Assembly: GCA_964016885.1 (NCBI GenBank)
Contig: OZ024745.1
Location: 62,062,001 to 62,126,000, forward strand
Direction of reading: 5' to 3'
Length of the DNA stretch: 64,000 nucleotides
From: Eledone cirrhosa
Lineage: Eukaryota
In this document: in pieces, positions 6,094 through 56,883 of the stretch
How positions within the stretch are numbered: position 1 is the stretch's first letter
Layout: each line of letters starts with the position of its first letter
The notes under the pieces: generated by a model
Database searches by the model: none
Told to the model about the DNA's origin: nothing
Seen by the model: only the letters and a program-made list of their open reading frames with translations
Made by a program: the position numbers and the translations under genes

Positions 6094-6432
6094 GTATTGA
6101 AACTTGCAAACTTGACTGTCACCACATATTATGAACCTGAAGATTGCGAAAGCATGAAAGTACTTGTTCAATTAACACTTAGAATTTAATATTCTATCAT
6201 ACTATTTCATTATAATACCATTATAAATTTTAAAGGATTGTAAATAAAACGAGTAAATCAGACAAAGTTGGAATTCCTCTTATTAATATATATATACACA
6301 TACATACATAACCATACAAATATACACATACATATACATACATATCACAAACACATACATACAAATACAAACACACACATATATATGTGTGTAAAACTCA
6401 TTCTTAGATAATTCATATGAACCTTATTTAAC

Positions 6433-12504: not shown

Positions 12505-12795
12505 AAAAAAAGTCTAAAGTCCTGTCTTGAGCAAGAACGCTCATTTGGCCGGTGCTTATCCCAGTTTCATGGCGTGAAGCGACTGAGAGTACAGACCCCA
12601 CCCCCTCCTGGAAAGGACGCCAGTCCATCGCAGGGTTAAACCTCCATCTATTGCTGGTACTCATTTTCAACTGAGTATACTGGAGCAACGTGAAATGAAG
12701 TGTTTTGGTCAAGAACACAACACGCAACCTAGGAATCGAGTCCACAACATTATGATCGTAAATCCAACATCCTTACCACTAGGCCACGCGCCTCC
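12505..12795 (-). mobile_element. tRNA-derived SINE with V/Meta-SINE-like body
   Basis: Minus strand has A box TGGCCTAGTGG, B box GGACTCGATTCC, and body tgttgtgttcttga..aaacactt..ttgctccagt..aaccctgcgatggactggcgtcc..gtcgcttca..gaaac.gggataagc. Family assignment is from recall. Confidence 0.8.
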
Positions 12796-12871
12796 ACCAC
12801 ACATACATATAATAATATATATATATATATACATACGTACACACACTCACGCACATATATATAATAATACT

Positions 12872-13049
12872 TGTTTCTACTTTTGGCACAAGGCCAGCAA
12901 TTATCCCAGTGCGTTACTGGTACTTTATTTTATCGACCCCGTAAGGATGAAAGGCAAAGTTAACCTCGGCGGGATTTGAACTCAGGCCGTAACTCTATGC
13001 TGCAAAGCATGGCGTCCGATCCTCTACCGATACTGCCAATCAACCGACT
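12872..13049 (-). mobile_element. tRNA-derived SINE with Nin/Deu-like core and (ATT)n tail (octopus-type)
   Basis: Minus strand has A-box-like TGGCAGTATCGG, B box GAGTTCAAATCC, core gcctttcatcc.t.cggggtcgataaaataaagtaccag, and tail ggccttgtgccaaaagtagaaaca. More than 10 copies in the window. Confidence 0.85.
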
Positions 13050-13073
13050 TATATATAATAATATATAAGCCGC

Positions 13074-13113
<40 letters not shown>

Positions 13114-13373
13114 TTTCTTTATTAACCACAAGGGTTTACATAAAGTAGACATTAAGGACAGTGCAGGACAATGCAGGACGGTACAAATGGGCATTTCTGC
13201 GTGTAAAAAAACAAAAACAGAGGATGTAACAAAAATAACAATGAAAATAACAATGAAAAATTCCCCAATAGGGGGGAGACTTCGGAGGGACATTTGTGGA
13301 GAAAGCCCAGTAAAAAGCCACAATGACCCTGACCACCAAGGCAAGTGCCCTTTCCCAGTTTTCCACCTTTAGT

Positions 13374-16300
13374 TTACAGATATATACTCAGAGTCGGCCC
13401 ATTCACTCGGGCCATTCTTGCTTCTCTCACCCATCTTTCAACAAAATGCTGGGAAGAGAGCACTTCCTTCTCTACTCTGATTTTCCTTTTCAAATGAAAT
13501 TTGAAAAAGTCAATCAGAGCATCACCGAAGAGGTAAGTGCTCGTCTTCAGCCCTTTCAAACGTGTCCACCATACTATCTCTTTCGCCATGGCCACCAGAC
13601 AGATAAAAACTGCCTGCCCTTCCCGGCTAAAGGAGGAGGACGGGGCAATCCTCACGATAGACTCAGATGATAGCTGGATCCGTCCTAAACGCGACAGCAG
13701 GTGTTCGACATAAACCCACAAGTCAGCAATTTTCGGACACTGGACGAGTGCGTGCAGGACGGTTTCGTCGCCCTGCGCGCATCTCGGACATGCCCGGCTG
13801 ACGGCACCTCCATGCCTGTAGAGTTTATCCCGAACTGGCAAGGCTCCTCGGTAGCACTGCCAGGCCAGAGATTTCTGGAAGTTGTCCATAGGCCCTGGCC
13901 CGAAAGTTCTTCCGAAGAGATTGGCTAGTTGATTTTCGTCGACGCCTAGAGTTTCCCCAAGTACGTCGTCGCTCTTCCCCTCCACTAATCCTCTATAGAA
14001 CGCCGAGGTGGAGTTTCCACCGATCACATTGCCCGATTGGTCGAGGGCTGTGAGCGCCTGAAGACATTCCAGTCTCCAGGCGCTCCCTCTCGGTCTTCGC
14101 TTGACCCAGGACTGCAGCTCCGTCAAGGAAACGAGCTGGGGAAAAACGCGTCTAGCAAACGGCGACCACACCTGATCACCGTCGAGGAAGAGGTGGAGAT
14201 GTCGTAGCCTGAGCGCGTGCCTACGCATCATCAGCCACGGCATGCCCAGCCCTCCACGTAGCGGGTGTTGACAACAGATGGACCGCCTGACCATCGGAGC
14301 ACGTCCCTTCCACAAAAAGCGAAAGAGCAAACGCTCCAGCGCAGTCAGGCGAGGCTTAGGACAAGGTACGACGGTTAGGCGGTAGCAGATGACAGACGCG
14401 ATGTACGCGTTAGCCACCTCCGCTCGACCTTTCAGGGATAGCTTCCTCTCCGCCCATTTCTGGGTGAGAGAAGCCACCCTGCTCGTCACCTCGTCCCAGT
14501 TTTTGTCCGTCTGGAGGTCCGGACCGAACCAGACCCCTAGCAATTTAACCGGTCCGTCCGTCCAGCGCCCGACGACGCTGTTGGACGGCATGGACCTGCC
14601 TCTCCAGGTGCCGAGCTGCAGGCCCACTGACTTTTCCTGGTTGATCATTGCTCCTGTCACCGCTTCGTATTCTCTTAGTGTAGTGCCGATCGCCTCGATG
14701 TGTTTGGCGTTCGACACCACTACGGTGACATCGTCCGCATATGCTGACACGGATCTTCCGCATCCTAGTTCGCGCGGGACTCCCCTCAACGTCTCCAGTT
14801 TGTGCAGTAATGGCTCGAGAGTCAATACGTACAAGAGGGACGAGAGGGGACATCCTTGGCGGACCGAGCGCATGATGTTGAACGGTTCCGACAGGTGACC
14901 GTTCACTCTCACCACAGAGCAGATGTCGCTGTGCATGGCAGCGATCCAGCCTCTGAAGACGGGCCCAAAGCCAGCCGCCCTCAGGACTGCCGCTAGGTAA
15001 CGATGGTCGACCCTATCGAAAGCTTTCGACTGATCTAAATTGATCAAGGACCCACCCGTGCCAGGTTCCTTAGCTACCCTCTCTATGATGTATCGCATGA
15101 GGTGGAGGTTGTCGTGGATGGATCTGTCGGGAATGGCGCATGTCTGCGCCTCTCCCACCAGACCACCAACGACAAGCGCCAACCTCTTTGCTAGCACCTT
15201 GGCCAAAATCTTGAACTCTGTGTTTAGCAGAGTTATGGGCCGGAAATTGTCTATGTTATCCCCCTTGATCGGGTCCTTTCTCAGCAGTGCCACCGCTCCT
15301 CGGCTCACAGAACTGGGCATTCTTTTGTTCTGTTGCCAGTTGCAGTAGACGTCCGCCAAGAGGCCTCCGAACAAGTCTGGCATCTGTACGTAAAGTTCAT
15401 AGGGCAGACCATCCAAACCAGGCGATTTACCCCTTGTGCAGCCAGTCATTGCCTCCCTTATTTCAGCGGCTGTTATCGGCTTTTCGCAACACTTCGCCTC
15501 AGTGGCCGAGAGCCGCGGCAGTCCGTCGAGGTAGACACTAAAGTCCATCCCTCTACCCGGCCCCCCGCTGCCCCCGAACAGCTGAGCGAAGTGTCGCTGA
15601 AAAGCTTCACACATTTGCCCGGGATCGAGTAGCATGCGCCCGTCGTGGTCCACCAAAGACCGGATCGTGGCTTTGTTGCCACGACGCGCCTCCGCCACTC
15701 GGGCCCATTGAACGGCTTTCGTCCCCTCGTGTCTGAGAGCACGCACCCTAGCTCTGACAACGCAGCCTTCGTGCTTTGCATTGAAGAATTGGTCAAGGGC
15801 CAATTTCGCCGCAAGCACGTCGGTCGCAATGCCTTTGCTAAGCGCCTCGTCTAATTTTCTAACTAGTTCTCCCTCTGCTCTATTTTTCTCTATTGCTAAA
15901 GCCTTACTAAACCTAATCGATTCTATTCTAATCGCTCTTTTCAGAGCAAACCACCACTTGTTGTTGACGATGGCCCCCGTCAACGCCCGCTTAACTAGTT
16001 CGCTAATCCGGTCTCTGTAGGCCTTGCGCGCTGGTAAGGACGCGTTTAGCTTCCAGTAGCCGGGTCCTCGTCTATGAAGCCTATCTAAGTCAAGCACACA
16101 GGTCACGAATTTGTGGTCCGTGTAGCTGACTATCTTGAATTGTGGACAGCCTATGCTAGACCTATCTATTTCCCTACAAAATACTCTATCTAGATATGAT
16201 CTGGATGACCCTATGCGGTTTGTCCAAGTCCACATTGGCACATTCGGGAAATCCAATCGGTACCTGTCAGATAGTTCAAAACGCCTGAGCAGGTTGGTCA

Positions 16301-16793
16301 GGCTCTTGCACCCTCCACCCCTATCCGCTAATCCCACACAGTCCCAGCGTGCATCTAAGATCCCGTTCCAGTCGCCCACTAACACTAAAGAGCGGGACGT
16401 TCCAAGAAAGGTCTCCAGACGCCGGAAGAAATCAGGCCGCCCTGCTCCTGTCGGGGCATAGACGGCCACTAGCCTGAAAGCTTGCCCGTCTCCGCTGGTC
16501 ACGTCCAGCACCACCAGCTTACCCTCTGGGTCCAGGAAGATGGCCCGTATGGCGAGATCCAAACCTCTCCGAAAAAGCACAGCAACTCCTCCACCCGATC
16601 CAGGACGGCTGGGAGATGCGTACACATCGTAGCCGCCGAAGATCGGTGCGAAGGCCCGTGCTTCGGAGATTCTGGTCTCGCTGATGGCCACTACATCTAT
16701 GTTTAGTGACCTGAGGTCGTTGAGCAGGTGACCCTGCTTCCATGACGACCCCAAGCCACGCGCATTTATGCTGCCTATTCTGAGTGAGGTCAT
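13374..16793 (-). CDS. Tx1 ORF2, 1139 aa: APE endonuclease, reverse transcriptase and CCHC zinc finger (intact)
   Basis: EN motifs SINARG, ISET, VYAP, GDWN, SYLDR, TDH. RT motifs SPGLDGLP, RPITLLN, LDQSKAFDRVDH, RQGCPLS, YADD. C-terminal CPRC..ETVLHALVQC. Confidence 0.96.
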   Translation of the reverse strand: MTSLRIGSINARGLGSSWKQGHLLNDLRSLNIDVVAISETRISEARAFAPIFGGYDVYASPSRPGSGGGVAVLFRRGLDLAIRAIFLDPEGKLVVLDVTSGDGQAFRLVAVYAPTGAGRPDFFRRLETFLGTSRSLVLVGDWNGILDARWDCVGLADRGGGCKSLTNLLRRFELSDRYRLDFPNVPMWTWTNRIGSSRSYLDRVFCREIDRSSIGCPQFKIVSYTDHKFVTCVLDLDRLHRRGPGYWKLNASLPARKAYRDRISELVKRALTGAIVNNKWWFALKRAIRIESIRFSKALAIEKNRAEGELVRKLDEALSKGIATDVLAAKLALDQFFNAKHEGCVVRARVRALRHEGTKAVQWARVAEARRGNKATIRSLVDHDGRMLLDPGQMCEAFQRHFAQLFGGSGGPGRGMDFSVYLDGLPRLSATEAKCCEKPITAAEIREAMTGCTRGKSPGLDGLPYELYVQMPDLFGGLLADVYCNWQQNKRMPSSVSRGAVALLRKDPIKGDNIDNFRPITLLNTEFKILAKVLAKRLALVVGGLVGEAQTCAIPDRSIHDNLHLMRYIIERVAKEPGTGGSLINLDQSKAFDRVDHRYLAAVLRAAGFGPVFRGWIAAMHSDICSVVRVNGHLSEPFNIMRSVRQGCPLSSLLYVLTLEPLLHKLETLRGVPRELGCGRSVSAYADDVTVVVSNAKHIEAIGTTLREYEAVTGAMINQEKSVGLQLGTWRGRSMPSNSVVGRWTDGPVKLLGVWFGPDLQTDKNWDEVTSRVASLTQKWAERKLSLKGRAEVANAYIASVICYRLTVVPCPKPRLTALERLLFRFLWKGRAPMVRRSICCQHPLRGGLGMPWLMMRRHALRLRHLHLFLDGDQVWSPFARRVFPQLVSLTELQSWVKRRPRGSAWRLECLQALTALDQSGNVIGGNSTSAFYRGLVEGKSDDVLGETLGVDENQLANLFGRTFGPGPMDNFQKSLAWQCYRGALPVRDKLYRHGGAVSRACPRCAQGDETVLHALVQCPKIADLWVYVEHLLSRLGRIQLSSESIVRIAPSSSFSREGQAVFICLVAMAKEIVWWTRLKGLKTSTYLFGDALIDFFKFHLKRKIRVEKEVLSSQHFVERWVREARMARVNGPTLSIYL

Positions 16794-16828
16794 GTTTAAA
16801 ATAGAGTGGAAAAGATGGGAAAGACCAC

Positions 16829-18925
16829 TTACCGTACTTTTGGTAGAGGAGGGATGGTTTTTACATCCCTTTTCACTTGATCGTCTGGTGAAGGGACCGT
16901 TGAATCGTCCCTTCGGCTGGTCGTCGGCTCTTCTAAGAGAATGTCTGAGTATACTCTTCGATTGATGGTTCCTCCTAGGTCCCTGAAATCACCAACTGCG
17001 TTGGGGAATTTCGTTTTAATATTTGTGTATTGTTTCTGTGCTATTTTTAGCAGTCTTATGTTAGTTGGCGTTTTGATTGGTGCTGGTATTATGTAGTCCT
17101 GTTGTGAAATGTCTGTGTGTTCAATTATGTAAGTCATTAGTTTCTTGTTGTGTGTATTTATTGCCGTGCATTTGTTTTTCTGGGGGTGGGGTGTGGTTCT
17201 GCTATTTTCTTGTCGTTGTTGCTGGGTGTGTGTGTTTTGTTGTTGTGTTTGCGATGTTGGTGCTTGTGGTGGTGGTGTTGAAGGTGTTGTTGGCGGTGGG
17301 GTTGTCGCCGGTGGTGATGGTGGCGCTAGTGTAGGTGGTGATGGTGTTGGTGTTGTTGCTGCTGTGGGTCTCTTTGCAGTAGACTTTACCCTTTTCTCAT
17401 TTCTTTCCTCCCTTTTCAAAGGCGACGATGCGCTGCTTCTGCGTTTGTGCCTTCTTACGACCTTTTGCCATCTCTCTCCCACCTCACACTCCATGTCTGA
17501 TTCTGTGAGGTCGGGGAGGGGTACCAGCTCCACTCTTTCACTTGTTGTTGTTGGTGATGTTTGCACTGGAGTCTCTGTTGCAGCTGCATTTGGTATTGCT
17601 GTTGTTGTTGTTAGTATTTCCACTGCTGCTGCTGTTTTTGATTTCCGTGGAGTGGGTATGGGTGCCACGGGCCTAGCGTTCCTGGTTGCCGCTTGTCCTG
17701 TTGCTGGTAGCCGTGGAGCCGGATTCAGAAGGAGGGGGGTTTTCTCCTTTCTCAGGGTCTTCTCGTTGCAGAAGGCCCTGAGGTGAGTCTTCGATCCACA
17801 GCGAAAGCATTTCGGGCGTTTGCCCTCAACACTTATGGGCAGTTGAGTGCCGTTATCGAAGTCTATCACATCCGGGATAGCTTCGATGCACTCCTGGTTG
17901 GTTTGGATTAGCATCTCAATGGAGGAGCCGACCCAATCTTCTCTTACTTTTTTCTGTACTTGCAGTACAGTTGTTTTGTCCTCGATTCCGACGAGGACAG
18001 ACGCGGCCAGCCAAGAAGGGGTCATTCCGGGGGGGACGTGGGTCAGTTTGACCCTCACAATTTTTGCCCACAGTAGGAGGGCACCAACACCATTTCCTCG
18101 CTCCTTAGGGTCACTACTGATTGGGCCTTTGCCTCCTGGGGTGTGGCAAAAAGTACGTCTACGGTGGCATATTTTTTGCCTCGGGTGATGTGCGTTTTCC
18201 GCTGCCACACAGACCCCAAGGCTTTTTGTATTTGGGCCTCTGTGGCTCTTTCCACCCTACGGGATTTTGTACTTACTGTACGGTACGTGACGGTACAGTG
18301 CTCTTGGGTTTCGAAAAATTTTTTCCGCTGCCTTGCAGATTGCTCGGTGTCCGTTCTTTGTCACCATCTTCTTCGCTTCCTCTAATTCCTCATTTGTTAT
18401 GAGGATTGTTTCCAAGTTTTTCGCAATACCTGCAAATGAGATTGGTTTTTCTCTGCTGTTGTTGTTGTCGTCAGAGCTGCTGGTACTTTTGTTGTTGCTG
18501 CAGGTACTACGACTACTGCCTCCGCCGCTGTTGCTGTGGTTGTTGTTGGTGTTGCTGCTGCTAATGCTGTTGTTGTTTATGCTGCTGGTGATGCTGTTGC
18601 GGCTGCTACTGTTGTTTTCATTGTCACTGTTGCTGTTGTTATTACGGCTGCTACTGCTATTATTCCTGACGTCAGACGAATGAACTGGGTTTTCGTATTT
18701 GCCGCACACCTGTTTCGTCGCTGTCGTCGTCGTCGTGGAGAAACCTTGCACGCTTTGCACGAGACTTTTCTTTTCTTTCGTCGCTTGCGAAAGAGAAGGG
18801 AGGGAGAGAGACACATTTAAAGAAGGGAGGGAGAGAGACAATCTTCTCTCTGCTGTAGTGATGATTGAGGAAGAAGAAGACGGAATGAGTGGGAGTGACG
18901 TATGAAATTTCTTTTTCGTAGCCAT
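16829..18925 (-). CDS. Tx1 ORF1, ~698 aa nucleic-acid-binding protein with CCHC knuckle and two compensating homopolymer indels
   Basis: ATG at 18925 to TAA at 16829 is 2097 nt, in frame overall. Contains CFRCGSKTHLRAFC. Frame shifts at ~18320 and ~18062 relative to paralogue E. Confidence 0.85.
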
Positions 18926-19418
18926 GTTTTTTTGTTTAAAATGAAATTTTGGGTACAAAACCCCAATAACTGGTTATTTAACCCCGAAGGGCCAAATAAC
19001 GGACAGAAAGACCCCTCTCACGAGGAGGAGGGTGTCTTTATCAACAATTTGGTTCAAGTTTTAAACAATTTACAATTGTTTTAACGGTTAAAAATTACTA
19101 TACCTTACAGAGCCGAGCCTCCGTCAACCATGGCATTCAATAATAATAATAATAATAATGATTTCATTTATTGGCCACAAGGGCCGACATATAGGGGACA
19201 ACACAATAGACAGGGACAGTGGGGGTTTACATAGAGATCGAGTAAGTATAAATAACAAAAAAACAAAAACAAAATAACAATAAAAATACAACAATGAAAG
19301 TTCCCCAATAAGAGGGATCACCACCCAGGGTTGACTCAAGCACCCCACCAGTCCTGAGCCACCCGACGCTCCTAGGGCACCCGGGAAGGGCACCCCTCTC
19401 CTTCTCGAATTCACCAGC

Positions 19419-22400
19419 CTACAGGCGCATGATCAGAGTAGGCCCACTCACGCGGGCCATTCTCGCCACATTCACCCACCTTTCAGTAAATGTACTGGGG
19501 GGCAGCACTTCTCTCTCCACCCTCACCTTCCTTTCCAAGTGAAACTTGAAGAAGTTGATGAGGGATTGGCCGAAGAGAAAAGTGTCTGTCTTCAGTCCTT
19601 TCAACCTGGTCCACCATGCAACCTCTTTCGCTACTGCCACCAGGCAGAGGAAAATTGCCTGCCCTTCCTGACCAAAAGAAGGCGGCGGGTCAATCTTCAC
19701 TATGGACTCGGACGATAGCCGGATCCGTTCTACACGCGACAATAGCTGTTCGACATAACCCCACAAGTCAGCAATGCACGGACACTGGACGAGTGCGTGC
19801 AGAACGGTTTCGTCGCTCTGCGCGCATCTCGGGCAGGTTCGTCTGACAGCACTTCCGTGCCTGTAGAGTTTATCCCGAACCGGCAGCGCCCCCCGGTAGC
19901 ACTGCCAAGCGAGGGATTTCTGGAAGTTATCCATCGTCCCCGGCTCGAAAGTCCTCCGGAACATACTGGTCAGTTCTACTTCGTTGACGCCCAGAGCCTC
20001 TCCTAGTACGTCATCGCACTTGCCCTCCACTAATCCTCTATAGAAATCTTGAGTGGAAGTTCCACTGACCGCATTGCCCACCTTGCAGAGTGCAGTGAGC
20101 GCCTGGCAACATTCCAGATGCCAGTCGCCCAGTCTCGGTCTCTTCTTGACCCAGGACTGCAGCTCAGTCAAAGAGATGAGCTGCGGAAAGGCCCGTCTAA
20201 CAAACGGCGACCACACCTGTTCACCGTTTAGGCAAAATATCTGGAGATGTCGCAGCCTCAGCGCATGTCTGCGCATCATTAGCCACGGCGTGCCCAGCCC
20301 TCCACGAAGAGGGTGCTGGCAGCAGATGGACCGCCTCACCAACGGGACCCGTCCCCTCCACAAAAATTTGAAAAGGAGCCGTTCCAAATTGGCGAGGCGT
20401 GGACGGGGGCAAGGCACGACGGTCAGGCGGTAGTAGATGACGGACGCGATGTACGCGTTCGCCACCTCCGCCCGCCCTTTCAGTGATAGCTTTCTCTCAG
20501 CCCATTTCTGGGTGAGGTTGGCTATCCTGCTCGTCACCTCGTCCCAATTCTTATCCACCTGGAGGTCTGGTCCGAACCAAACCCCGAGCAACTTTACCGG
20601 TCCGTCTGTCCAGCGCCCAACGACGCTGTTGGACGGCATGGACTTGCCTCTCCAGGTGCCGAGCTGCAAGCCCACCGACTTTTCCGGGTTAAGTTTTGCT
20701 CCCGTCAACCTTTCATATTCCTCCAAATGGGTGCGGATCACCTCGATTTCCGAGGTGTCCGACACCATCACGGTGATGTCGTCCGCATAAGCGGACGCAG
20801 CCTTTCTACGTCCCGGTTCGAGCGGGATGCCCTGCAACAACTCCAGCTTCCGCAGTAGAGGCTCAAGAGTCAATACGTACAGAAGTGAGGAGAGAGGGCA
20901 CCCTTGACGGACCGATCGAGAGATCTGAAACGGTTCCGAGAGGTGGCCATTAACTTTGACCACCGAGCGGATGCCGCTGTACATTGCAGCGATCCAGCTT
21001 CTGAAGACGGGGCCGAAGCCAGCCGCCTCGAGGACAGCCTCCAAGTACCGATGGTCGACCCTATCGAATGCTTTCGATTGATCTAAATTGATCAGAGCCC
21101 CACCGAAGCCAGGTTTGCACCCAACCCTCTCTATGATGTATCGCATGAGGTGGAGGTTGTCGTGTATGGACCTGGTCGGGATTGCGCAAGTTTGCGCCTC
21201 CCCAACCAAATCTTTGACGACAAGCGCCAACCTTTTCGCTAACACCTTGGCCAAAATCTTAAACTCTGTGTTGAGCAGGGTTATGGGCCTGAAATTATCT
21301 AGTGTGTCCCTCTTGTTCTCGTCTTTCCTTATCAGCGTCACTACGCCACGGCTCACAGAACTGGGAATGCTCCCGTTCTGCTGCCAGTTGCAGTAGAGCG
21401 CTTCGAGGAGATCGGAGAACAAGTCTGGCATATTTACGTAAAGCTCGTAGGGCAGACCATCCAAACCGGGTGACTTGCGACTCGAGCAGCCGACAAGGGC
21501 GTCCTGAATTTCGGCTGATGTTATCGGCTCTTCGCAGCGCTCAGCGTCGGCCGTCGAGAGGCGTGGCAAGCCGTCGAGGTAGGGACTGAAGTCCGCCGCC
21601 GTCTCCGACTCACCCATCCTCCCGAACAATCGAGCAAAGTGCTGGCGAAAGGCCTCACACATCTGCTTGGAATCGCTCAGTTCGTGTCCATCTCGATCCG
21701 TCAAAGACCGAATTGTGGTTTTATTTCCACGCTGCGTCTCTGCAAAGCGAGCCCATCGGGCAGCTTTGGTTCCCTCGTTCCTCAGAGCACGCGCCTTAGC
21801 TCTGACAATGCAACCTTCGTGTTTCGCATTGAAGAAATGGTCTAGTGCCATTCTCGCCGCTAGCACGTCTGTTGCAATGCCACTACAAATAGCCTCGTCT
21901 AACTTAGCTATCAGCCCCTCCTCCTTTCTATTTTTCTCTATTGCTACTTCTTTGCTAAATCCTATCGAGGTTGCTCTAATCTCTCTTTTGAGTGCCCCCC
22001 ACCACCTGTTGTTGACAACCCCCCCTGTCAACTTTTGCTTAACTAAGTTGTTGACCCGGTCCCTGTAAGCTTTACGTGCCGGAAACGACATGTTTAGCTT
22101 CCAGTAGCTAGGTCCTAACCTACGTGTCTTATCTAGGTCGACCATACAGATCACAAGCTTGTGATCTGAATAGGCAACCGTTTTAAAATGTGGACATCCT
22201 ACACTATTTCTATCTCTTTTCCTAATGAAAATCCTATCTATGTACGATCTAGATGACCCTATGCGATTGGTCCAGGTCCATACTGGCGCATTAGGGAAAT
22301 CTAGTCGGTACCTGTCAGACAGTTGAAACTGGCTGATCAGGTACTTGAGGCTTTTGCACCCCCCGCTCCTATCAGATACTCCCACACAATCCCAGCGTGC

Positions 22401-22838
22401 TTCTAAGATGCCATTCCAATCCCCTATTAACAGTAAAGGGCGAGACGTAAGCAGAAAGTTTTCCAGGCGCCTAAAGAAGTCCGGCCGACCGGCCCCAGTA
22501 GGGGCGTAGACGGCCACCAGTCTAAAGGCACCACCTTCGCTATTGCTCACGTCCAGGACCACCAACTTTCCGTCAGGATCCCGGAAGATTGACCTTACCT
22601 CGAGATCCAGACATTTCCTAAACAGCACAGCCACTCCACCTCCCATTCCCGGCCGACTAACAGATGCAAAGATCTGATAATCGTCGAAAATCGGCGCCAG
22701 TGCGCGTGTGTCGGAAATTCTGGTCTCGCTGATGGCAATTACATCCATTCCTAGTGACCTGAGGTCGTTGAGCAAGTGACCTTGCTTCCAGGGCGACCCC
22801 AGGCCACGAACATTTAAACTTCCTACTCTTATGGCCAT
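19419..22838 (-). CDS. Tx1 ORF2, 1139 aa EN-RT-CCHC (intact, family distinct from A)
   Basis: Same motifs as element A (SLNVRG, GDWN, SDH, YADD, CPRC..H....C), with many substitutions relative to A. Confidence 0.96.
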   Translation of the reverse strand: MAIRVGSLNVRGLGSPWKQGHLLNDLRSLGMDVIAISETRISDTRALAPIFDDYQIFASVSRPGMGGGVAVLFRKCLDLEVRSIFRDPDGKLVVLDVSNSEGGAFRLVAVYAPTGAGRPDFFRRLENFLLTSRPLLLIGDWNGILEARWDCVGVSDRSGGCKSLKYLISQFQLSDRYRLDFPNAPVWTWTNRIGSSRSYIDRIFIRKRDRNSVGCPHFKTVAYSDHKLVICMVDLDKTRRLGPSYWKLNMSFPARKAYRDRVNNLVKQKLTGGVVNNRWWGALKREIRATSIGFSKEVAIEKNRKEEGLIAKLDEAICSGIATDVLAARMALDHFFNAKHEGCIVRAKARALRNEGTKAARWARFAETQRGNKTTIRSLTDRDGHELSDSKQMCEAFRQHFARLFGRMGESETAADFSPYLDGLPRLSTADAERCEEPITSAEIQDALVGCSSRKSPGLDGLPYELYVNMPDLFSDLLEALYCNWQQNGSIPSSVSRGVVTLIRKDENKRDTLDNFRPITLLNTEFKILAKVLAKRLALVVKDLVGEAQTCAIPTRSIHDNLHLMRYIIERVGCKPGFGGALINLDQSKAFDRVDHRYLEAVLEAAGFGPVFRSWIAAMYSGIRSVVKVNGHLSEPFQISRSVRQGCPLSSLLYVLTLEPLLRKLELLQGIPLEPGRRKAASAYADDITVMVSDTSEIEVIRTHLEEYERLTGAKLNPEKSVGLQLGTWRGKSMPSNSVVGRWTDGPVKLLGVWFGPDLQVDKNWDEVTSRIANLTQKWAERKLSLKGRAEVANAYIASVIYYRLTVVPCPRPRLANLERLLFKFLWRGRVPLVRRSICCQHPLRGGLGTPWLMMRRHALRLRHLQIFCLNGEQVWSPFVRRAFPQLISLTELQSWVKKRPRLGDWHLECCQALTALCKVGNAVSGTSTQDFYRGLVEGKCDDVLGEALGVNEVELTSMFRRTFEPGTMDNFQKSLAWQCYRGALPVRDKLYRHGSAVRRTCPRCAQSDETVLHALVQCPCIADLWGYVEQLLSRVERIRLSSESIVKIDPPPSFGQEGQAIFLCLVAVAKEVAWWTRLKGLKTDTFLFGQSLINFFKFHLERKVRVEREVLPPSTFTERWVNVARMARVSGPTLIMRL

Positions 22839-22867
22839 GCTGGCAGGATGAATGGGAGAGGAAAGGT

Positions 22868-24730
22868 TTACTTACCTTCCGGGGTCTTGTGAAGGTCGGG
22901 TGGTTCGACCTCCATGGTTTGTGGGGTTTCTTTTGGGAACCCCTTTAATAGTCTTGACGTGGGTTTTACGTTCGGGGTTCCCACATCCCGAGGAAAGCTC
23001 TTTCGAATTTCTTTGTATGAAGCGAGCGACATTCGCATCAGAAGCAAATTATCTGGTACGCGAAATGTGCTCGCTTCAAATGTTTCCCCGTCTTTTTCGA
23101 TGTTTGTGCTTCGTGCTACATGGGCCATCAATTCCTTGTTGGCCCTTCTGGCAAGCACGAAGTTTTTAATGTTTTGTTGCTCGGGTTTTATTTGTTCGTG
23201 TGATTGTGGTGGTGATAGCTTTGTTAGTGTTGTTTCTATTGTGTCTGCGTTTGTTGTGGGTGGGGTGTCTGTAGTTTCTGATGTTTGTGTGTCTATTTGT
23301 TCTTGTGTCTGTTTAGCTTGTTTGCGTTTGGGGGATTTTGGTGGTTGTGTTGGTGATGCTGTGGGGAAAATGTTTGTGTGGGTGGTGTGTGTATTTTTTT
23401 TTGTGGGGGTGTTTGTGCTTTGTGGATTTCTTTTTTTTTTGTGTTTTGTTTTTTGTATTTTGGGGGACTTTGGTTTTCCCTCATCTTCACTGCTGGAGGA
23501 TGAGGGGTCTGTGGCTGTGAGCGTGTTTGTGTCTGAGTGAGTGTTTATCTTCTTGTTCGTGTGTGTATTTTGGGGGGGAGGGGGAATGGGAGAGCTTTCC
23601 TCGTTTCCCCCCTGGGTGTGCAATTTTGGTGGTTCCATTGTTGACGGTGTTGCTGGTGGTCCTTGTCCCGGCGTCGCCAGCAGTGGAATCTTTCGACCCC
23701 TTGCGCTTTTCGGCAGTTGAGGGCAGAAGGCTCGCAAGTGTGTCGTTTCCCCACAAAGGAAACAATGCGGCCTTTTGCCCTCAGTCATTATATGCAACAC
23801 CCTCCCGTTTTGGAGGCGGATGTGGTCCGGGATTGTTTTTACGTTTTCGGGTCTGATTTGGAGCAGTATCTCCAGATCAACCCCGGACCAGTCGTCTCTG
23901 GCAGTTCTCGTTGCCTCTACCGGGACTGTATCCGTTCCTTCCACGATTACGCAACCCAGGAGCCACCACATATCAAGTCCTGGTGGAATCCTGGGAATGC
24001 GCACACGTGCTATTCGTTTTCCCATGTGGGAGGGGTACATTATGACCTTGCTGGTTTTGCAAGGGGTCATTGAATGCTTCACAGCGAGGGCTTCAGACTT
24101 GAACAGCACCGAAACGGTGCCGTATTGCCTGCCCCTCTCTATGAAGTCTGTGTCCTCTCTGATGTATTTCAGTGCGGCTTCTATGTCAGCTTGGGCGATT
24201 ATCGCTGCCCTCTTTGTCTCTACTGAGATGCATCTGAAATGCACCGTTCTTTTTTCCACTGCCTCAATGGCTTCTGCCGGGACAGTTAAGTTTGCCCAGG
24301 TCTGCTCTTGGTTTATGATTTTCCAGGCCTGGGCCAACTTTTCCTCTCTGTTGGTTAAGTCGATGCTGTAGCATGGTCTCCTTTTAGCCGCTGCCACAGC
24401 AGCGAAAGTGTTCTTGTTGGTGTTGTCACTGTTGTTGTTCTTGTTGGTGTTGCTGCTGCTATTGCTGTTGTTGTTCTCCCCTGTGTCGTGGTTACCTTCT
24501 GTGCTGTTGGCCTTGTTGGTGCTCTCGCTATTACCACCTTCTGCGCTGTTCGGCTTGTTGGTGTTGGTGTTGTCGCTGTTACCACCTTCCGCGCCGCTCG
24601 GCCCGTTGGTGCTGGCACTGTCGCTGCTCACATTCGTGCTGGTGGCGCTCCTCGCCTCACCTCTCCTCTCAACGCTCAAGTCGCCGTTGCACGACAGCAG
24701 ACCCGCCTCTAGGGGGCGTGGCTCCGCCAT
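22868..24730 (-). CDS. Tx1 ORF1, 620 aa from ATG 24730
   Basis: MAEPRPLE... start, Asn/Ser-rich N-terminus, RRM-like middle region, CFLCGETTHLRAFC knuckle, Pro/Thr-rich linker and conserved C-terminal domain. Confidence 0.9.
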   Translation of the reverse strand: MAEPRPLEAGLLSCNGDLSVERRGEARSATSTNVSSDSASTNGPSGAEGGNSDNTNTNKPNSAEGGNSESTNKANSTEGNHDTGENNNSNSSSNTNKNNNSDNTNKNTFAAVAAAKRRPCYSIDLTNREEKLAQAWKIINQEQTWANLTVPAEAIEAVEKRTVHFRCISVETKRAAIIAQADIEAALKYIREDTDFIERGRQYGTVSVLFKSEALAVKHSMTPCKTSKVIMYPSHMGKRIARVRIPRIPPGLDMWWLLGCVIVEGTDTVPVEATRTARDDWSGVDLEILLQIRPENVKTIPDHIRLQNGRVLHIMTEGKRPHCFLCGETTHLRAFCPQLPKSARGRKIPLLATPGQGPPATPSTMEPPKLHTQGGNEESSPIPPPPQNTHTNKKINTHSDTNTLTATDPSSSSSEDEGKPKSPKIQKTKHKKKRNPQSTNTPTKKNTHTTHTNIFPTASPTQPPKSPKRKQAKQTQEQIDTQTSETTDTPPTTNADTIETTLTKLSPPQSHEQIKPEQQNIKNFVLARRANKELMAHVARSTNIEKDGETFEASTFRVPDNLLLMRMSLASYKEIRKSFPRDVGTPNVKPTSRLLKGFPKETPQTMEVEPPDLHKTPEGK

Positions 24731-24963
24731 GTTTTTTTTGAGAAAAAAATTATTATTTTTTTCAAAATAAAGTTCAAATATTTGGGCCAAAAGGCCCAAA
24801 TATTATGAGTTATTCCTTCACAGGATACAAATGAATGTCTTATAATGCTTCAGCGGTACAACAAAATAAACAATTCTCCACAATTAATCCTCAAAAAATT
24901 GCTTACTCACGGAGCTTCAAAAAACGTACATCCACTTTCGTCAATAATAATAATAATAATAAT

Positions 24964-25209
24964 TGTTTCTACTATTGACACAAGGCCAGCAATTACCCAG
25001 TACATTACAATAATAATAATAATTGTTTCTACGTTAGGCACAAGGCCAGCAATTACCCAGTGCATTACTGGTACTTTATTTTATCTACCCAGTAAGGATG
25101 AAAGCAAAGTCAACCTCGGCGGGATTTGAACTCAGATCGTAAAGGGACGTAACTATGCTGGAAAGCATGGCGTCCGACCCTCTACTGATACTGCCAATCC
25201 ACGGCCCTT
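24964..25209 (-). mobile_element. (ATT)n-tailed SINE: a 3' fragment (24964-25005) plus a full copy (25024-25209)
   Basis: Same family as 12872-13049, with the copies separated by AAT repeats. Confidence 0.85.
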
Positions 25210-25216
25210 TATATAT

Positions 25217-28200
25217 GATTTTATTTATTGGCCACAAGGGCCGACATATAGGGGAAAATACAAAAGACTGGGACAGTGGGGTTTTACAGAAAAATCGAGT
25301 AAACAATATGAATAACAATAACAAAGTAACAATAAAAAAGTAACAATAAACAAACAAGAAAATTACAAGAAAAAATTTCCCCAATAGGGGGGTTGACCAC
25401 CCAGGGTTCGCTCAGGTACCCCACCAATCCTGAACGACCCGACGCTTCGAGAGCACCCTGGAAGGGTACCCCCTCTCCTCTTCACATTTACCTACCTACA
25501 GCCGCATGACCAGAGTAGGCCCACTCACACGGGCCATTCTCACCACATTCACCCACCTTTCAGCAAATGTACTGGGGGTGGGGGTGGGGGGGGGGAGCAC
25601 TTCTCTCTCCACCTGCACCTTCCATTCCAAGTGAAACTTGAAAAAGTTGATGAGGGATTGGCCGAAGAGAAAAGTGTCTGTCTTCAGTCCTTTCAACCTC
25701 GTCCACCATACAACCTCTTTCGCTACTGCCACCAGACAGGAAAATTTCCTGCCCTTGCTGGCCAAAAGAAGGCGGCGGGTCGATCTCCACTATGGACTCG
25801 GCCGATAGGCGGATCCGTTCTACACGCGACAACAGCTGCTTAACATAACTCCACAAGTCAGTAGTGCACGGACACTGGACGAGTGCGTGCAGAACGGTTT
25901 CGTCGCTCTGCGCGCATCTCAGGAAGGTCCGTCTGACAGCACTTCCGTGCCTGTAAATTTTATCTCGAACCGGCAGTACCCCCGGTAGCACTGCCAAGCG
26001 AGGGATTTTTGGAAATTATCCATCGTCCCCGGCTCGAAAGTCCTCTGGTACAGACTGGTTAGTTCGACTTCGTTGACTCCCAGAACCTCTCCGAGTCCGG
26101 CGTCGCACTTGCCCACCAATAATCCTCTATAGAACTCGACAATGGAAGTTCCACTGACCGCATTTCCCGCCTGGTAGAGGGCAGTGAGTGCCTGGCAACA
26201 TACCAGATGCCAGTCACCCAGTCTGGGTCTCTTCTTGACCCAGGACTGCAGCTCAGTCAAAGAAATGAGCTGCGGAAAGGCCCGTCTGATAAACGGCGAC
26301 CACACCTGTTTACCGTTGTGGCAGAATATCTGGAGATGTCGCAGCCTCAACGCATGTCTGCGCATCATTAACCACAGCAGGCCCAGCTCTCCGCGTAGAG
26401 GGTGCTGGCAGTCGATTGACCGCCTCACCAACGGAAGTTGTCCCTTCCACAAGAATTTGAAGAGGAGCCGTTCCAACTTGACGAGGCGCGGACGGGGTCA
26501 AGGCACGACGGTCAGGCGGTAGCAGATGACGGACGCGATGTACGCATTCGCCACCTCCGCGCGATCTTTCAGTGATAGCTTCCTCCAAGCCCATTTTTGG
26601 GTGAGACTGGCTACTATGCTCGTTACCTCGTCCCAATTCTTTTCCACCTGGAGGTCTGGTCCGAACCAAACCCCGAGCAACTTTACCGGTCCGTCCGTCC
26701 AGCGCCCCACGATGCTGTTGGACGGCATGGGCCTGCCTCTCCAGGTTCCGATCTGCAAGCCCACCGACGTTTCAGGGTTAAGTTTGGCTCCCGTCAACCT
26801 TTCACATTCCTCCAATAAGTTGCCAACCACCTCGATTTCTGAGGTGTCCGACACCATCACGGTGATGTCGTCCGCATAAGCCGACACCGCCTTTCCACGT
26901 CCCGGTTCGATCGGGATGCCCTGCAACAGCTCCAGCTTCCGCAGTAAAGGCTCAAGAGTCAATACGTACAGAAGAGAGGAGAGAGGGCACCCTTGACGGA
27001 CCGATCGGGAGACCTTAAACGGTTCCGAGAGGTGATCATTAATTTTGACCACCGAGCAGGTCCCGCTGTGCAATGAAGCGATCCAGCTTCTGAAGACGGG
27101 GCCGAAGCCAACCGCCTTGAGGACAGCCTCCAGGTACCGATGGTCGACCCTATCGAATGCTTTCGATTGATCTAAATTGATGAGAGCCACACCAAAGCTA
27201 GGTTTACATCCTACCCTCTCTATGATGTATCGTTTCAGGTGGAGGTTGTCGACGGGGACCTGGTTGGGATTACGCAAGTTTGCGCCTCCCCAACCAAATC
27301 CCCGTCGACAAGCGCCAACCTCTTCGCTAACACCCTGGCCAAAATCTTAAACTCTGTGTTGAGCAGAGTTATAGGCCTGAAATTGTCTAATGTGTCCCTC
27401 TTGTTCTCGTCTTTCCTTATCAGTGTCACTACGCCCCGGCTCAGAGAACTGGGAATGCTCCCGTTCTGCTGCCAGTTGCAATAGAGCGCTTCGAGGAGAT
27501 TGGAGAACAAGTCTGGCATATTTACGTAAAGATCGTAGGGCGGACAATCCAAACCGGGTGACTTGCACCTCATGCAGCCGACAAGGGCATCCTGAATCTC
27601 GGCTGAAGTAATCAGCCTTTCGCAGCGCCCAGCGTCGGCCGTCGAGAGTGGCGTCAAGCCATCGAGGTAGGGACTGAAGTCCGCCACCGCCTCTGACCCG
27701 CCACTTCCCCCGAACAACCTAGCAAAATGTTGGCGAAAATGCCTCACACATCCGCTTGGAATCGCACAGCTCGTGTCCATCTTGGTCCGTCAAAGACCGA
27801 ATCGTGGTTTTATTACCACGCTGCGCTTCTGCCACGCGGGCCCATCGAACAGCTTTGGTTCCCTCGTTTCACAGAGCACGCGCCTTAGCTCTGACAATGC
27901 AACCTTCGTGTTTCGCATTGAAGAAATGGTTTAATGCCATTCTCGCCGCTAGCACGTTAGTTGCAATGCCACTGCAAATAGCCTCGTCTAACTTATCTAC
28001 CAACACCCCCTCCTTTCTATTTTTCTCTAATGCTACTTCTTTGCTAAACTCTATCGACATTACTCTAATCTCTCTTTTGAGAGCCCCCCACCATCTATTG
28101 TTGACGATTTCCTCTGTCAACTTTTTCTTAACTAAATTGTTGGCCTGCTACCTGTAAGCCTTACGTGCCGGAAATGACATGTTCAGCTTTCAATAACCAG

Positions 28201-29934
28201 GTCCTAATCTACGCGTCTTATCTAGGTCGACCATACAGATCACAAACTTGTGATCTGAATAGATGACCGTTTTAAAACGTGGACAGCTTACACTAGTTCT
28301 GTCTATTTTTCCTAATGAATATCCTGTCTATATACGACCTAGATGACCCTATGCGGTTAGCCCAGGTCCACACTGGCGCATTAGGGAAATCTAGTCGGTA
28401 CTTGTCAGACAGTTGGAACTGGCTGATCATGTTTTTGAGGCTTTTGCACCCCCGCCCCCGCTCCTATCGGATACTCCCACACAGTCCCAGCGTGCGTCTA
28501 AGATGCCGTTCCAGTCCCCCGCTAACAGTAAAGGGCGAGACGTACCTAGAAAGGCTTCCAGGCGTCTAAAGAAGTCCGTCTGTCCTGCCGGTGATGGTTT
28601 TGGTGGTGTTGTTTCGGTTGTGTCTGTGTTTTGTTGTGAGTGCGGTGTCTGTGGTTTCAGATGTTTGTGTGTGTATTTGTTCTTGTGTCTGTTTAGGTTG
28701 TTTGCGTTTGGGGGATTCTGGTGATGGTGATGGTGGTTTTGATGTTGGTGTTATTGGAGAGATATTTGCGTGGGTGGTGTCTGCATTTTTTATTGTGGGT
28801 GATGTTGTGCTTTGAGTTTTTTTTTCCTTTTTGTGTTTCCTTTTTTGTATTTTGGGAGATTTTGGTTTTCCCTCATCTTCACTACTGGTAGATGAGGGGT
28901 CTGTGTCTGTAAGTGTGTCTGTGTGTGTTTATGTTTTTATTGATGTGTTTATTTTTGGGGGGAGGGTGAATTTGACAACTTTCCTCGTTTTCCCCCTGGG
29001 TGGTCAATGTTGGTGGTGGTCTTTCTATTGGTGTTGTTGTTGGTGGTTCTGCCGGTGCTGGTGTTGGTTGTGGTCCTCGCCCTGGCGTCGGAAGCAGTGG
29101 AGCCCTTCAACCCCTTGCATCTTTCAGCAGTTGAGGGCAGAAGACTCGCAAATGTGTTTTTTCCCCACAAACAAAACAACGCCGCCATTTGCCCTCGGTA
29201 ATAATATGAATGACCATCCCATTCTGAAGGCGGATGTGGTCCGGGATTGTCTTCACATTCTCGGGCCTGATCTGGAGAAGTATCTCCAGGTCAATCCCGG
29301 ACCAGTCCTCTCTGGCCGTTCTTGTCACTTCTATCGGGACGGTATCCGTCCCCTCCACAATCATACATCCCAGAAGCCATCACATGTCAGTCCTGGTGGG
29401 AATCTGGGAATGCGGAGACGGGCCGTTCTTTTTCCCATGTGGGAGGGGTACATTATGACCTTGCTGGTTTTGCAAGGAGTCATAGCGTGTTTCATAGCGA
29501 GGGTTTCTGACTTGAACAGCACCGAAATGGTGCCGTACTGTCTGCCCCTCGCTTTGTATTCGGTGTCATCTCTGATGCACCTCAGTGCGGCTTCGACATC
29601 TGCTTGTGGAATTAAAGCTTCCCTTTTGGTTTGTGCTGAGATGCATCTATAATGCACCGTTCTGCGCTCCACTGCCTCAATAGCTTCTACCGGGACAGTT
29701 AAGGTTTGCATCTTTGTTTGAGAGGTCCATGTTCAAGCAAGGCCTCTTTTTTGCCGCTGCCGCAGCGAAAGTGGTCTTCTTGTTGCCGTTGGGGGTGTTG
29801 TTGTTGTTGTCGTTGTTCTTCTTGGTGTTGTTGTTATCACTGCCTTACAAAAGAACAACAAATTCAATAAATAAGTTTTGACAGGTAAATAAATAAACTT
29901 ACGAGAGCAAGCAAAAAGACGTCCGTTCAGACAC
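25217..29934 (-). mobile_element. Tx1 element C (B-family ORF2), decayed, with internal deletions
   Basis: ORF2 remnants 25496-28587 are frameshifted. ORF1 is fused to ORF2 at ~28588 (PKPSP|AGQTDFFRRLE). The 5' end abuts (AAT)18. Confidence 0.92.
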
Positions 29935-29988
<54 letters not shown>

Positions 29989-29989
<1 letters not shown>

Positions 29990-31807
29990 TTTTCTTTATT
30001 AATCACAAGGGTTTACATAAAGTAGACATTAAGGACAGTACAGGACAATACAGGACGGTACAAATGGGCATTTTTGCGTGTAAAAAAAAACAGAGGATGA
30101 AATTAAATAACAAAGAAAAATTCCCCAATAGGGGGGAGACTTCCGAGGGACATTTGTGGAGAAAGCCCATTAAAAGACCACAGTGACCCTGACCACAGTG
30201 GCCCTGACCACCAGGGCAAGTGCCCTCTCCCAGTTTTCCACCTTTAATTTACAGACACATACTCAGAGAAGGCCCATTCATTCGGGCCATACTTGCTTCT
30301 CTCACCCATCTTTCAACAAAATGCTGGGAAGAGAGCACTTCCGGGGCATAGACGGCCACTAGCCTGAAAGCTTGCCCGTCTCCGCTGGTCACGTCCAGCA
30401 CCACCAGCTTACCCTCTGGGTCCAGGAAGATGGCCCGTATGGCGAGATCCAAATCTCTCCGAAAAAGCACAGCAACTCCTCCCCCCAATCCCGAACTTTT
30501 CACTGCTTGTGGCCTCCTCCGGAAGGATGTCCTTATAAATCCTCCTGAAGAATGCTTGTCGGAAGTCTCCGATGTCTTTGGGGAATTTTTGTTTTAGTGT
30601 CGTGTACGTTTTCTGTGTGATGCGAGTGATTTGTATGTGTGGAGGTGGTGTGAACTTTTGGGTTGTTGTGTAGTCTTTTTCTGTGATGCTGGTGCTGTGT
30701 TGGATGTAGTGTAATAATTGGTTGTTGTTCAAATTTAATGCTGTGTAGTGTGTATCGTTTTGGTTGTTTTGTTTTGTTTGCGTTTGTTGTGGGTTTGTTT
30801 ATGTTTCGCTTTTTGGTGACTTTTGTGGTGTTGGTGATGGAGGTGTTGGGGTAATGATGGTGATGGTGTTGGTGTTTGGTGTGATGGGGTTGGTGATGCT
30901 GGTGTGGATGGTGGCATATCTGTCCTAACTTTTTTGTTTAATAGTTTATTTGTTTCCCTCTGTATTTTGTTTATGGAGGGAGCGTGAAGATAATTTTTTT
31001 CTTTTTTGGTTTCTTTTTTTCTTTTTTCCTGATACCGTTTCTCACTCCTCGTCGTCACAATCTGTCTACAGTTGCGATAAGCCGGGGAGTGGAAAATCAT
31101 CCACAGGCGTTGGTTTTGGTTGGGGGCTGACCCTGTACCCATCTTTCTTTACCATTTTTTTGGCTTCTTCTAATTCCTCCTGAGTTACCTGAAATGCTTC
31201 GCACTGTTTTGCTACTCTGGCAAAACTCAAGGTGGTTTTCTTAATTTCATTGTTGCTGTTGTTATCGTTATTTTTGTTATTATTAATTTTAGTTTCAGTT
31301 GTGGTGGTGGTGGCGTCAGTGGTGTTCGGTGTCGAAGAGTTCATTTTGGTTGAATTCATTTCGATATCACGAGTTAATTTATTTTTTTCTTTTGTTTCTG
31401 TTGTCGCTGTGGTGGTGGGGGTAGCGGCTTTAACACCTGCAGTTATTGGTTATGGCGTGAAATGAATGTCTGCCTGAGACAAATTTAAAATATTGCTACT
31501 GCTTATATTTTTAGTGTTGGCAAACGTAGTAATATTTACAATGGTGTCGGTGTGAGGTGTTAGGTTGTGAGGAAAGAGTTACTCTGAGTCGTCCATGATT
31601 TTTCAAAGAAACTATAATAATTATAAAAGTTTAAATTTTGGGCTCAAGGCCCCAATCTTTTTGGGTGTCCTTTTCAGATAACAATGTATGTGCACTTATA
31701 TACAGTAAAAACAATAGAAATATTTTCCATAAATGGCAATTTTAAACAACTGAAAATAACAAACCTTTGCGGAGCTCAGGATGATACGATTTACTACGTA
31801 GGTCGCC
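29989..31807 (-). mobile_element. Tx1 element D, 1.8-kb multiply deleted non-autonomous derivative
   Basis: A-like 3'UTR and ORF2 pieces (…VYAP|EVLSSQH…), divergent ORF1 remnants from ATG 31596, and (AAT)n on both sides. Confidence 0.9.
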
Positions 31808-31853
<46 letters not shown>

Positions 31854-32224
31854 TTAATAATAAATAGGGAACAAAGAAGAAGTATTGCATCAAATACATA
31901 TTTAAATACATATTACACATGTTTCGATGCCAATCAGTCCAAGAATTTTCGAATTATATATTGTGGTATGTCGAAGTTACACTTTACAATGTTTTAATTG
32001 TATATTGACCGTAACATATATTTCAAAGATGATTTGCTCGAGATGTACATATCGATCTATATGTTCGTCAGATATTTGAACTGAATCATCTGTCAAACAT
32101 ATGTAATGGTCGATAAACAGGAAACACATTTTAAATTCAAATCTTCGTTATATCATACTTGATATATACATTCTGCTATAGCACTGAGTACGCAAATTGA
32201 TACCATTTTCAGTAATCCATAAAA

Positions 32225-32324
<100 letters not shown>

Positions 32325-44740: not shown

Positions 44741-45013
44741 ATAATAATAATAATAATAATAATGATTTCTTTATTAACCACAAGGGTTTACATAAAGTAG
44801 ACATTAAGGACAGTGCAGGACAATACAGGACGGTACAAATGGGCATTTCTGAGTGTAAAAAACAAAAACAGAGGATGTAACAAAAAATAACAATGAAAAA
44901 TTCCCCAATAGGGGGGAGACTTCGGAGGGACATTTGTGGAGAAAGCCCAGTAAAAGGCCACAATGACCCTGACCACCAAGGCAAGTGTCCTCTCCCAGTT
45001 TTCCACCTTTAAT

Positions 45014-48418: not shown

Positions 48419-48453
48419 GTTTAAAATAGAGTGGAAAAGATGGGAAAGACCAC

Positions 48454-56635: not shown

Positions 56636-56661
56636 ATAATAATAATAATAATAATAATAAT

Positions 56662-56868: not shown

Positions 56869-56883
56869 AATAATAATAATAAG

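Follow-up and report, generated by a model that had tools for sequence, protein, structure and literature searches.

Related Tx1-like LINE families of Eledone cirrhosa insert into (ATT)n repeats in one orientation and stack head to tail

At least four related families of Tx1-like long interspersed elements (LINEs) in the genome of Eledone cirrhosa insert into (ATT)n microsatellites in one orientation, duplicating about 15-20 bp, and we are highly confident that this reflects true targeting of ATT accompanied by duplication. The families, here termed A to D, are all represented in a stretch of 64,000 nucleotides (assembly GCA_964016885.1, contig OZ024745.1, positions 62,062,001 to 62,126,000; hereafter the window, to the whole of which coordinates refer unless a contig is named), in which an earlier reading of the sequence alone had described a 19-kb head-to-tail run of LINEs and short interspersed elements (SINEs). 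The run is confirmed, with bounds at 12870-31863 and every part on the minus strand.

The confinement of these elements to (ATT)n is far beyond chance. Counting exact-pattern matches to 5' or 3' end motifs across the 3.0-Gb genome, 2,330 of the 2,413 family A 5' ends (96.6%) lie directly after (ATT)3 in exact phase, against a background in-phase rate of 172 in 400,000 strand positions (about 0.04%) obtained from 200 kb sampled at fixed intervals along contigs 1-5. For the remaining families the first matches listed were sampled, mostly from contig 1, of which the first 100-180 Mb supplied most samples overall. At least three ATT units precede family D in 30/30 cases and at least four precede family B in 29/30, while family C follows ATT in 20/25 by a strict rule, the other five lying within interrupted ATT tracts. 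The sequence-only reading had named a majority of non-ATT 5' flanks as the outcome that would speak against it, and the flanks of all four families are predominantly ATT. Its claim of strand specificity is likewise borne out, since the opposite arrangement, a family A 5' end after (AAT)3, has a single match genome-wide, itself ending in ATT. Median 5' run lengths are 8 for A, 7.5 for B and 16 for D, and the genome holds 83,321 runs of (ATT)≥6 (443,461 minus 360,140 overlapping matches). The same 200 kb contain 145 runs of (TA)≥8 versus 14 of (ATT)≥5, and the window has 41 (TA)≥6 runs (1,506 bp) versus 10 (AAT)≥4 runs (267 bp); as originally noted, no Tx1 copy lies inside a TA or CA run, even though TA runs are the commoner in the window. 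A recurrent surround of (ATT)n-GTT-ATT-AAT followed by TA/TG repeats was also observed around independent A and B insertions (loci L341, L360, L332-L335 and L095-L096), and is possibly a multicopy host repeat.

Truncated copies bear directly on whether ATT is a target or only a tail. From 50 A/D-type 3' ends (the 30 first listed with 1.5 kb of upstream sequence and 20 picked for having no listed 5' end), 21 truly 5'-truncated copies were obtained, two internal deletions and three near-full-length copies having been set aside. Ten of the 21 carry (ATT)≥3 no more than 45 bp from the 5' junction, an arrangement whose chance occurrence in a 45-bp interval is at most about 2% as inferred from the background sample. 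The rest comprise four with other triplet tracts, two inserted after a SINE tail, two (one event) in an ATTAT minisatellite, one in an AAT-oriented run and two with nothing at the 5' junction. Because truncated copies keep ATT at their 5' side, ATT is a target and not a tail only; it likely serves as both, the either/or being a false choice. Exact 18-bp duplications of interrupted repeats flank two (L355 and L360) of 21 solo B copies, a truncated copy (L243) shows a duplication of 16-17 bp, and site-specific GTT interruptions are duplicated. For whole copies, inspection revealed no duplications outside ATT runs. The earlier proposal that each insertion duplicates its target, causing arrays to grow, is thus upheld as regards duplication (18 bp, two B copies), and the renewal that it implies covers most stacking but not all of it.

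The SINE interspersed with these elements provides a second line of evidence. Thirty copies were fetched, 20 of which were scorable, and nine of these 20 display duplications of 15-20 bp in unique DNA, starting with ATTA(T/A). Within ATT runs, SINE heads may be joined in any of the three phases (5, 3 and 3 of 11), whereas the phase of full-length Tx1 copies is fixed. In one SINE variant the tail resembles the Tx1 3' end significantly (0 and 12 of 2,000 shuffles), and the matching duplication length together with tail similarity in one of two variants suggests that the SINE may use the Tx1 enzyme. The SINE head motif has 34,432 exact matches in the genome, some of them within satellite arrays. 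In a separate observation, it is repeated as a tandem satellite of 45-bp units that extends for several kb on contig 1 at about 10.53-10.54 Mb, 7.2 Mb and 1.98 Mb (L272-L275 and L288-L290).

Several results weigh against strict targeting with duplication, and have to be set beside those above. At the 5' junction, neither ATT nor another triplet tract is found in seven of the 21 truncated copies, and (CTT)n stands there in two. Exact duplications number only two among the 21 solo B copies, none of 69 whole A and D copies passes a strict interrupted-duplication test (their flanks being mostly pure repeat), and the 3' run of several copies amounts to 0-4 units, with an interruption that is absent upstream; the duplication length is drawn from few cases plus the SINE. 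The SINE itself lies mostly outside microsatellites, (ATT)≥3 occurring upstream in 2/20, and the tail similarity of its other variant is weak (58 and 141 of 2,000 shuffles). Truncated copies and the SINE are, in short, far less strict about ATT than full-length copies. One reading of these facts, that ATT is merely a 3' tail and RNA leader, with untargeted insertion and stacks arising by chance or selection, draws on the truncated copies that lack ATT at the 5' junction, but it is largely refuted already by the ATT that other truncated copies keep there, by the duplicated GTT interruptions and by the absence, on inspection, of duplications beyond the ATT runs of whole copies; we regard it as very improbable. 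A more serious contender holds that the endonuclease is only weakly specific (for ATTAT) and that RNA-DNA pairing at both ends confines full-length copies to (ATT)n, because a full-length cDNA could anneal only where the duplicated stretch is pure ATT. The gradient in strictness from full-length (96.6%) through truncated copies (10/21) to the SINE (2/20) would follow naturally, and in RTE-related elements microsatellite-like tails have been found to correlate with the first base of the duplications, according to the accessible part of that study (PMC6007223). Truncated copies nevertheless remain far above the background of at most about 2%, and the SINE could be of greater age, or mobilised by a different enzyme. 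A weakly specific endonuclease, though possible, seems to us somewhat doubtful.

Within the window, features were called from self-BLAST, open reading frames (ORFs) and sequence inspection, and those described here lie on the minus strand unless stated. The stack opens at about 12870-13067 with a SINE that matches other window copies in self-BLAST, whose tail ends GCCTTGTGCCAAAAGTAGAAAC and which, from its A/B-box-like motifs, we take to be tRNA-like. It is followed by (ATT)11 (13079-13111), the 3' flank of a full-length family A element (13112-19138) with an open ORF2 at 13374-16793 (endonuclease, reverse transcriptase and zf-RVT). An (ATT)7 spacer (19139-19159) links the 5' end of A to the 3' end of a full-length family B element (19160-24942) in which both ORFs are open, and a further (ATT)7 (24943-24963), the 5' flank of B, terminates a SINE tail fragment of about 45 bp (24964-25008), where a 60-bp unit is repeated with the neighbouring SINE tail. 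There follow (ATT)5 (25009-25023), which comes after the tail of a tRNA-like SINE at about 25024-25205, and ATATAT up to family C (25215-29934), a decayed copy with an internal deletion of about 1 kb and a B-type 3' part 88% identical to B. An (ATT)18 spacer (29935-29988) then separates the 5' end of C from the 3' end of family D (29989-31807), internally deleted to 1.8 kb, and the 5' flank of D consists of (ATT)15 plus interrupted units (31808-31863), with no recognised element in the sequence upstream. The order SINE-A-B-SINE-SINE-C-D proposed from the sequence therefore stands, except that the second SINE is the 45-bp tail fragment and not a whole element. Beyond the stack, an older family A copy, A2 (44764-50761), 97% identical to A, is flanked by (ATT)6 and (ATT)8(AGT)n, and an old B-type copy with its own 5' end, B2 (50780-56637), lies behind a SINE tail and (ATT)8. 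The 3' ends run from AATAAA to GAAA(T/A)C immediately before ATT, without poly(A), in all copies but C, which reads AATAAATAAAATC before ATAT; the 5' ends, described as ATT followed by G, are so in five of six copies, B2 reading ATT and then ATGACC. A 21-bp target-site duplication suggested at B is close to the 18 bp measured elsewhere but unprovable at B itself, where the flanks are pure repeat. With nine mismatches in 5.8 kb between B and its nearest sampled relative, and 99.3% identity between A and its own, B is the closer to its kin, and on this ground it is likely the youngest insertion of the stack, having probably landed in the run between the SINE tail and A.

A derivation of A-B and A2-B2 from one segmental duplication was considered and rejected, as A and A2 are 97% identical but B and B2 only 82%, with unrelated 5' ends. 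Further minus-strand SINE clusters with short ATT/ATC tails, several of them tandem, occur at 39277-39739, 44211-44627 and 56647-56880, and a plus-strand ORF fragment at 60178-60909 with a weak reverse transcriptase match (E 1e-4, below cut-off) represents a decayed retroelement. An Rfam scan of 12500-32400 matched neither ribozyme nor tRNA families and gave nothing beyond simple-repeat noise.

The ORF2 of both A and B is open and encodes 1,139 residues with an apurinic/apyrimidinic-type (APE) endonuclease, a reverse transcriptase (RT) and a C-terminal CCHC motif; Exo_endo_phos, RVT_1 and zf-RVT all score above the Pfam cut-off, and catalytic motifs are present. ORF1, which is interrupted in A, carries in both a CCHC zinc knuckle (C-X2-C-X4-H-X4-C) and matches no Pfam family. 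Whole D-family copies measure about 5.9 kb, the window D having lost its internal part, and A and D are about 95% identical over ORF2 and the 3' end while their 5' untranslated and ORF1 regions are unrelated, a swap of 5' modules whose pattern recurs among B, C and B2. Genome-wide there are 2,413 5' ends of A, 1,503 of D and 317 of B, 87 matches to the C 5' motif and a single occurrence of the B2 5' motif, whereas A/D-type 3' ends number 6,573 by one pattern, or 6,874 with NC-ATT by a slightly shorter one, and B-type 3' ends 1,433. A third Tx1-like 3' end type, GTCAGCCCTTGTGGCCAATAAAGAAATC, was seen, with ATT runs, in the upstream flanks of L014, L127, L146 and L316, from which at least one Tx1-like family beyond A-D can be taken to exist on sequence grounds; other 5' starts, GGTCTAAGCGG and GATCTGTTCGG, likewise come after ATT runs.

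Stacking is frequent outside the window as well. Of the 5' ends, 24/70 in A, 11/30 in D and 12/30 in B (one of the 12 read by eye) have a Tx1 3' end immediately upstream, which makes 47/130 or 36%. With runs chosen at random, in either order, about 20% would be expected, and the true expectation is higher because the 3'-end counts are lower bounds. Simple renewal hence accounts for most mixed stacks such as that of the window, although not for all stacking. B-B junctions number at least 35 (25 with exactly six units and 10 with five) versus about 11 expected. In the most extreme case, on contig 1 at 423,361,001-423,424,000 (L321-L327), ten full-length B copies lie head to tail, every one of the nine spacers being (ATT)5. 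Age declines from the decayed copies downstream to the intact young ones upstream, and the array ends at an inverted B 3' end; deletions and variants shared patchwise between neighbours give it the character of a mosaic. In another array (ar57), an identical interrupted flank of 42 bp precedes each of three A copies. For their first 1.4 and 0.6 kb, the two copies further upstream agree with the old decayed copy downstream, sharing 16 and 4 of its private variants, and from there on they agree with young unlinked copies. Of 27 same-array neighbour pairs, chosen by their spacing, 11 show 5' sharing at a level met by fewer than 2% of unlinked pairs, and without three near-identical pairs the sharing is 8/24 on the 5' side versus 1/24 on the 3' side. 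These observations point to copying between neighbours in same-family arrays, either through annealing of complementary DNA (cDNA) to a resident element or through allelic recombination. Counting against such copying, 16/27 pairs lack 5' sharing, and the pairs drawn from the ten-copy array do not count as independent. The older copy is the upstream one in two A arrays.

The account that we favour for the target, orientation, phase, duplication length, stacking and 5' sharing observed combines targeting with pairing, and we consider it probable. The endonuclease would nick the AAT strand, allowing RNA ending in AUU to pair with the freed (AAT) primer, and both flanks would remain targets, so that stacks could grow. 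If the SINE borrows the Tx1 machinery, as seems likely, its duplications would put the first nick immediately left of ATTAT, on the AAT strand. Full-length RNA would start with a few ATT units, and the end of the cDNA would anneal to the upstream repeat, yielding the fixed junction between ATT and G. Such units at the RNA 5' end are hinted at because the phase of full-length copies is fixed, as opposed to the three phases of the SINE, and because at L352 an ATT in the 5' flank corresponds to AAT in the 3' copy of the site. At the flank of L352, a young copy, two read runs match the filled junction and no empty form was found; contigs and RAD reads over the stack itself are swamped by other copies. 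This 5' step has a parallel in R2, the RNA of which carries upstream target (28S) sequence. Where a same-family resident lies 15-42 bp downstream of the nick, the cDNA might instead anneal to it; the resident would supply the 5' part of the new copy, and the array would gain copies at its head. We would put the chances of this resident-annealing step nearer to even.

The principal competing explanation for the shared 5' parts is that they arise after insertion, by recombination or gene conversion between pre- and post-insertion alleles aligned from the upstream flank. The breakpoints are spread (about 0.6, 1.4, 2.8-3.2 and 3.2 kb, and the whole length) and the ten-copy array is a patchy mosaic of shared deletions and variants, as such a process would produce, but on its own it leaves unexplained why B-B junctions are so numerous (at least 35 versus about 11) and why their spacer is near-constant at 5-6 units, and to yield the 5'-only asymmetry it requires polar upstream growth. 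Annealing to the resident covers polarity, spacer and excess together, whereas allelic recombination covers the spread of breakpoints, and we judge later recombination a substantial possibility, if a little short of an even chance. It might also be argued that same-family tandems stem from one event, be it RNA template jumping, which R2 proteins perform in vitro in the part of that work available (PMC11371274), tandem duplication or assembly error, and three neighbour pairs do differ by only 0, 0 and 1 substitution over 5.8 kb. Yet for most array members unlinked copies are at least as similar as their neighbours are, the upstream copies of ar57 carry 4 and 16 private variants of their old neighbour before matching unlinked copies, and the A-B and A2-B2 pairs of the window differ unevenly (97% and 82%). 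The differing ages of array members refute a single event as general cause, and we deem it improbable. Returning to targeting plus pairing, its most extended form would comprise an independent Tx1 lineage that evolved ATT targeting, with pairing doing much of the aiming, ATT units at both RNA ends and the resident acting as a repair template that turns truncated cDNAs full-length, building polar, telomere-style arrays at internal sites numbering in the thousands, on a repeat that another, unrelated LINE uses in antisense. This complete scenario is tentative, and rather unlikely in all its parts.

That other LINE was recognized because many Tx1 flanks are the reverse complement of an element with a C-terminal CCHC and PD..D motif, of restriction-like endonuclease (RLE) type, which from these motifs we presume to be Dong/R4. 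Among the loci examined, (AAT)≥3 comes directly after its 3' end in 38/39 cases; it follows Tx1 3' ends in antisense in 8/60 and in sense in 0/60, and lies upstream of 18/130 Tx1 5' ends. It gave no PDB match and only a weak zf-RVT match. Copies, seen at L120:3256-7950 and in many flanks, are often 5'-truncated and stacked, with (AAT)n on both sides. ATT repeats are hence common to the Tx1 families and to an unrelated RLE-type LINE of opposite orientation. At a minority of Tx1 3' ends or junctions (L160, L161, L163, L176 and L049), the adjoining repeat is (AAT)-oriented and not ATT; this minority is possibly a subfamily, or the product of insertion via the nick of the other LINE.

The series of microsatellites targeted by Tx1 elements gains a member without C, in a lineage that groups apart from the (TC)n-targeting one. 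Its young copies number from hundreds to thousands, and in many of them both ORFs are open. How APE-type elements target microsatellites is described as not well understood in the accessible text of PMC3812793, and the differing strictness of full-length copies, truncated copies and the SINE makes enzyme specificity separable from RNA-DNA pairing and the mechanism testable. If copying from residents occurs during insertion, it would offer a route to full-length rescue and polar arrays. The convergence of two unrelated LINEs and a SINE on about 83,000 (ATT)≥6 runs offers a cause for local repeat pile-ups, and counsels caution with AAT microsatellite markers in cephalopod genomics.

The closest named protein to ORF2 is from Argonauta (68% over 59% of ORF2), and the best family-named match is Xenopus laevis Tx1L (P14381), at 324 bits and 28% identity over 83% of ORF2, versus 176 bits for human L1 ORF2. 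In an RT tree built by a quick method from 42 rows, with no named L1 outgroup and with P0114 dropped for its short RT, the window proteins cluster with the Argonauta protein and unnamed sisters in a clade of their own that excludes the (TC)n-flanked P0094, which groups with Xenopus Tx1L at 100% support; the deep order of this quick tree is not firm. Tx1L, whose target is a DNA transposon (PMC4494074, accessible part), shares sequence-specific insertion with the window elements, the ORF2 of which is about 170 residues shorter in its C-terminal part. Targeting of microsatellites by Tx1 elements is already known, with Kibi in (TC)n and Koshi in (TTC)n of teleost fish and crocodilian families in (TTCC)n/(TTTC)n (PMC4494074, PMC3812793), to which the accessible parts of PMC4640811, PMC8967140 and PMC4824008 add no further target. 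Neither ATT-targeting Tx1 elements nor cephalopod Tx1 targets were found in searches of the open literature, a body that leaves subscription journals mostly outside and does not cover Repbase/Dfam. Kibi, Koshi and the crocodilian families resemble the elements reported here in combining APE endonuclease and RT with a microsatellite target and a single orientation; compared with Kibi and Koshi, the target here is ATT, without C, (CTT)n appearing only at 2/21 truncated junctions, and the window clade stands apart from (TC)n-flanked P0094 in a tree that does not include named Kibi/Koshi sequences. Kibi-like Tx1 copies with (TC)n flanks were observed in metagenome contigs (L365:700-823 and 6382-6426, and the 5' ends of L363 and L366), and (TC)n-flanked L365 ends near AATAAA without poly(A), like the window Tx1 elements. 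A metagenome scan for sister-clade targets yielded mostly distant or short relatives, with only fish-like (TC)n flanks among 14 loci screened.

Dong, of the R4 clade, targets TAA (PMC3812793, PMC3774820, in part) and so the same class of microsatellite, but it differs in having a single ORF with a C-terminal RLE, in contrast to the two ORFs and APE endonuclease of A and B, and in that its sense strand is flanked by (TAA)n and the Tx1 sense strand here by (ATT)n. In Octopus vulgaris, Dong-R4 and L1-Tx1 have both been reported as recently active, in a paper the main text of which, as available, does not contain the word target (PMC13282606). R2 elements with upstream 28S sequence on their RNA have uniform full-length and variable truncated 5' junctions, explained by annealing of the cDNA to the upstream target (PMC3774820, in the part available), and the elements described here show the same combination; R2, however, relies on an RLE and a hepatitis delta virus-like ribozyme, whereas no ribozyme family was matched at 12500-32400. 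In a similar vein, the tail-pairing, the duplication size, the borrowing by a SINE and the insertion into older tails postulated or observed here are all reminiscent of human L1 and Alu. There the tail pairs with the nicked target, duplications are of about 15 bp, the SINE borrows the enzyme and insertions occur into older tails. What sets the Eledone elements apart from human L1/Alu is a triplet instead of poly(A), the near-absolute confinement of full-length copies to it and arrays of up to 10 full-length copies.

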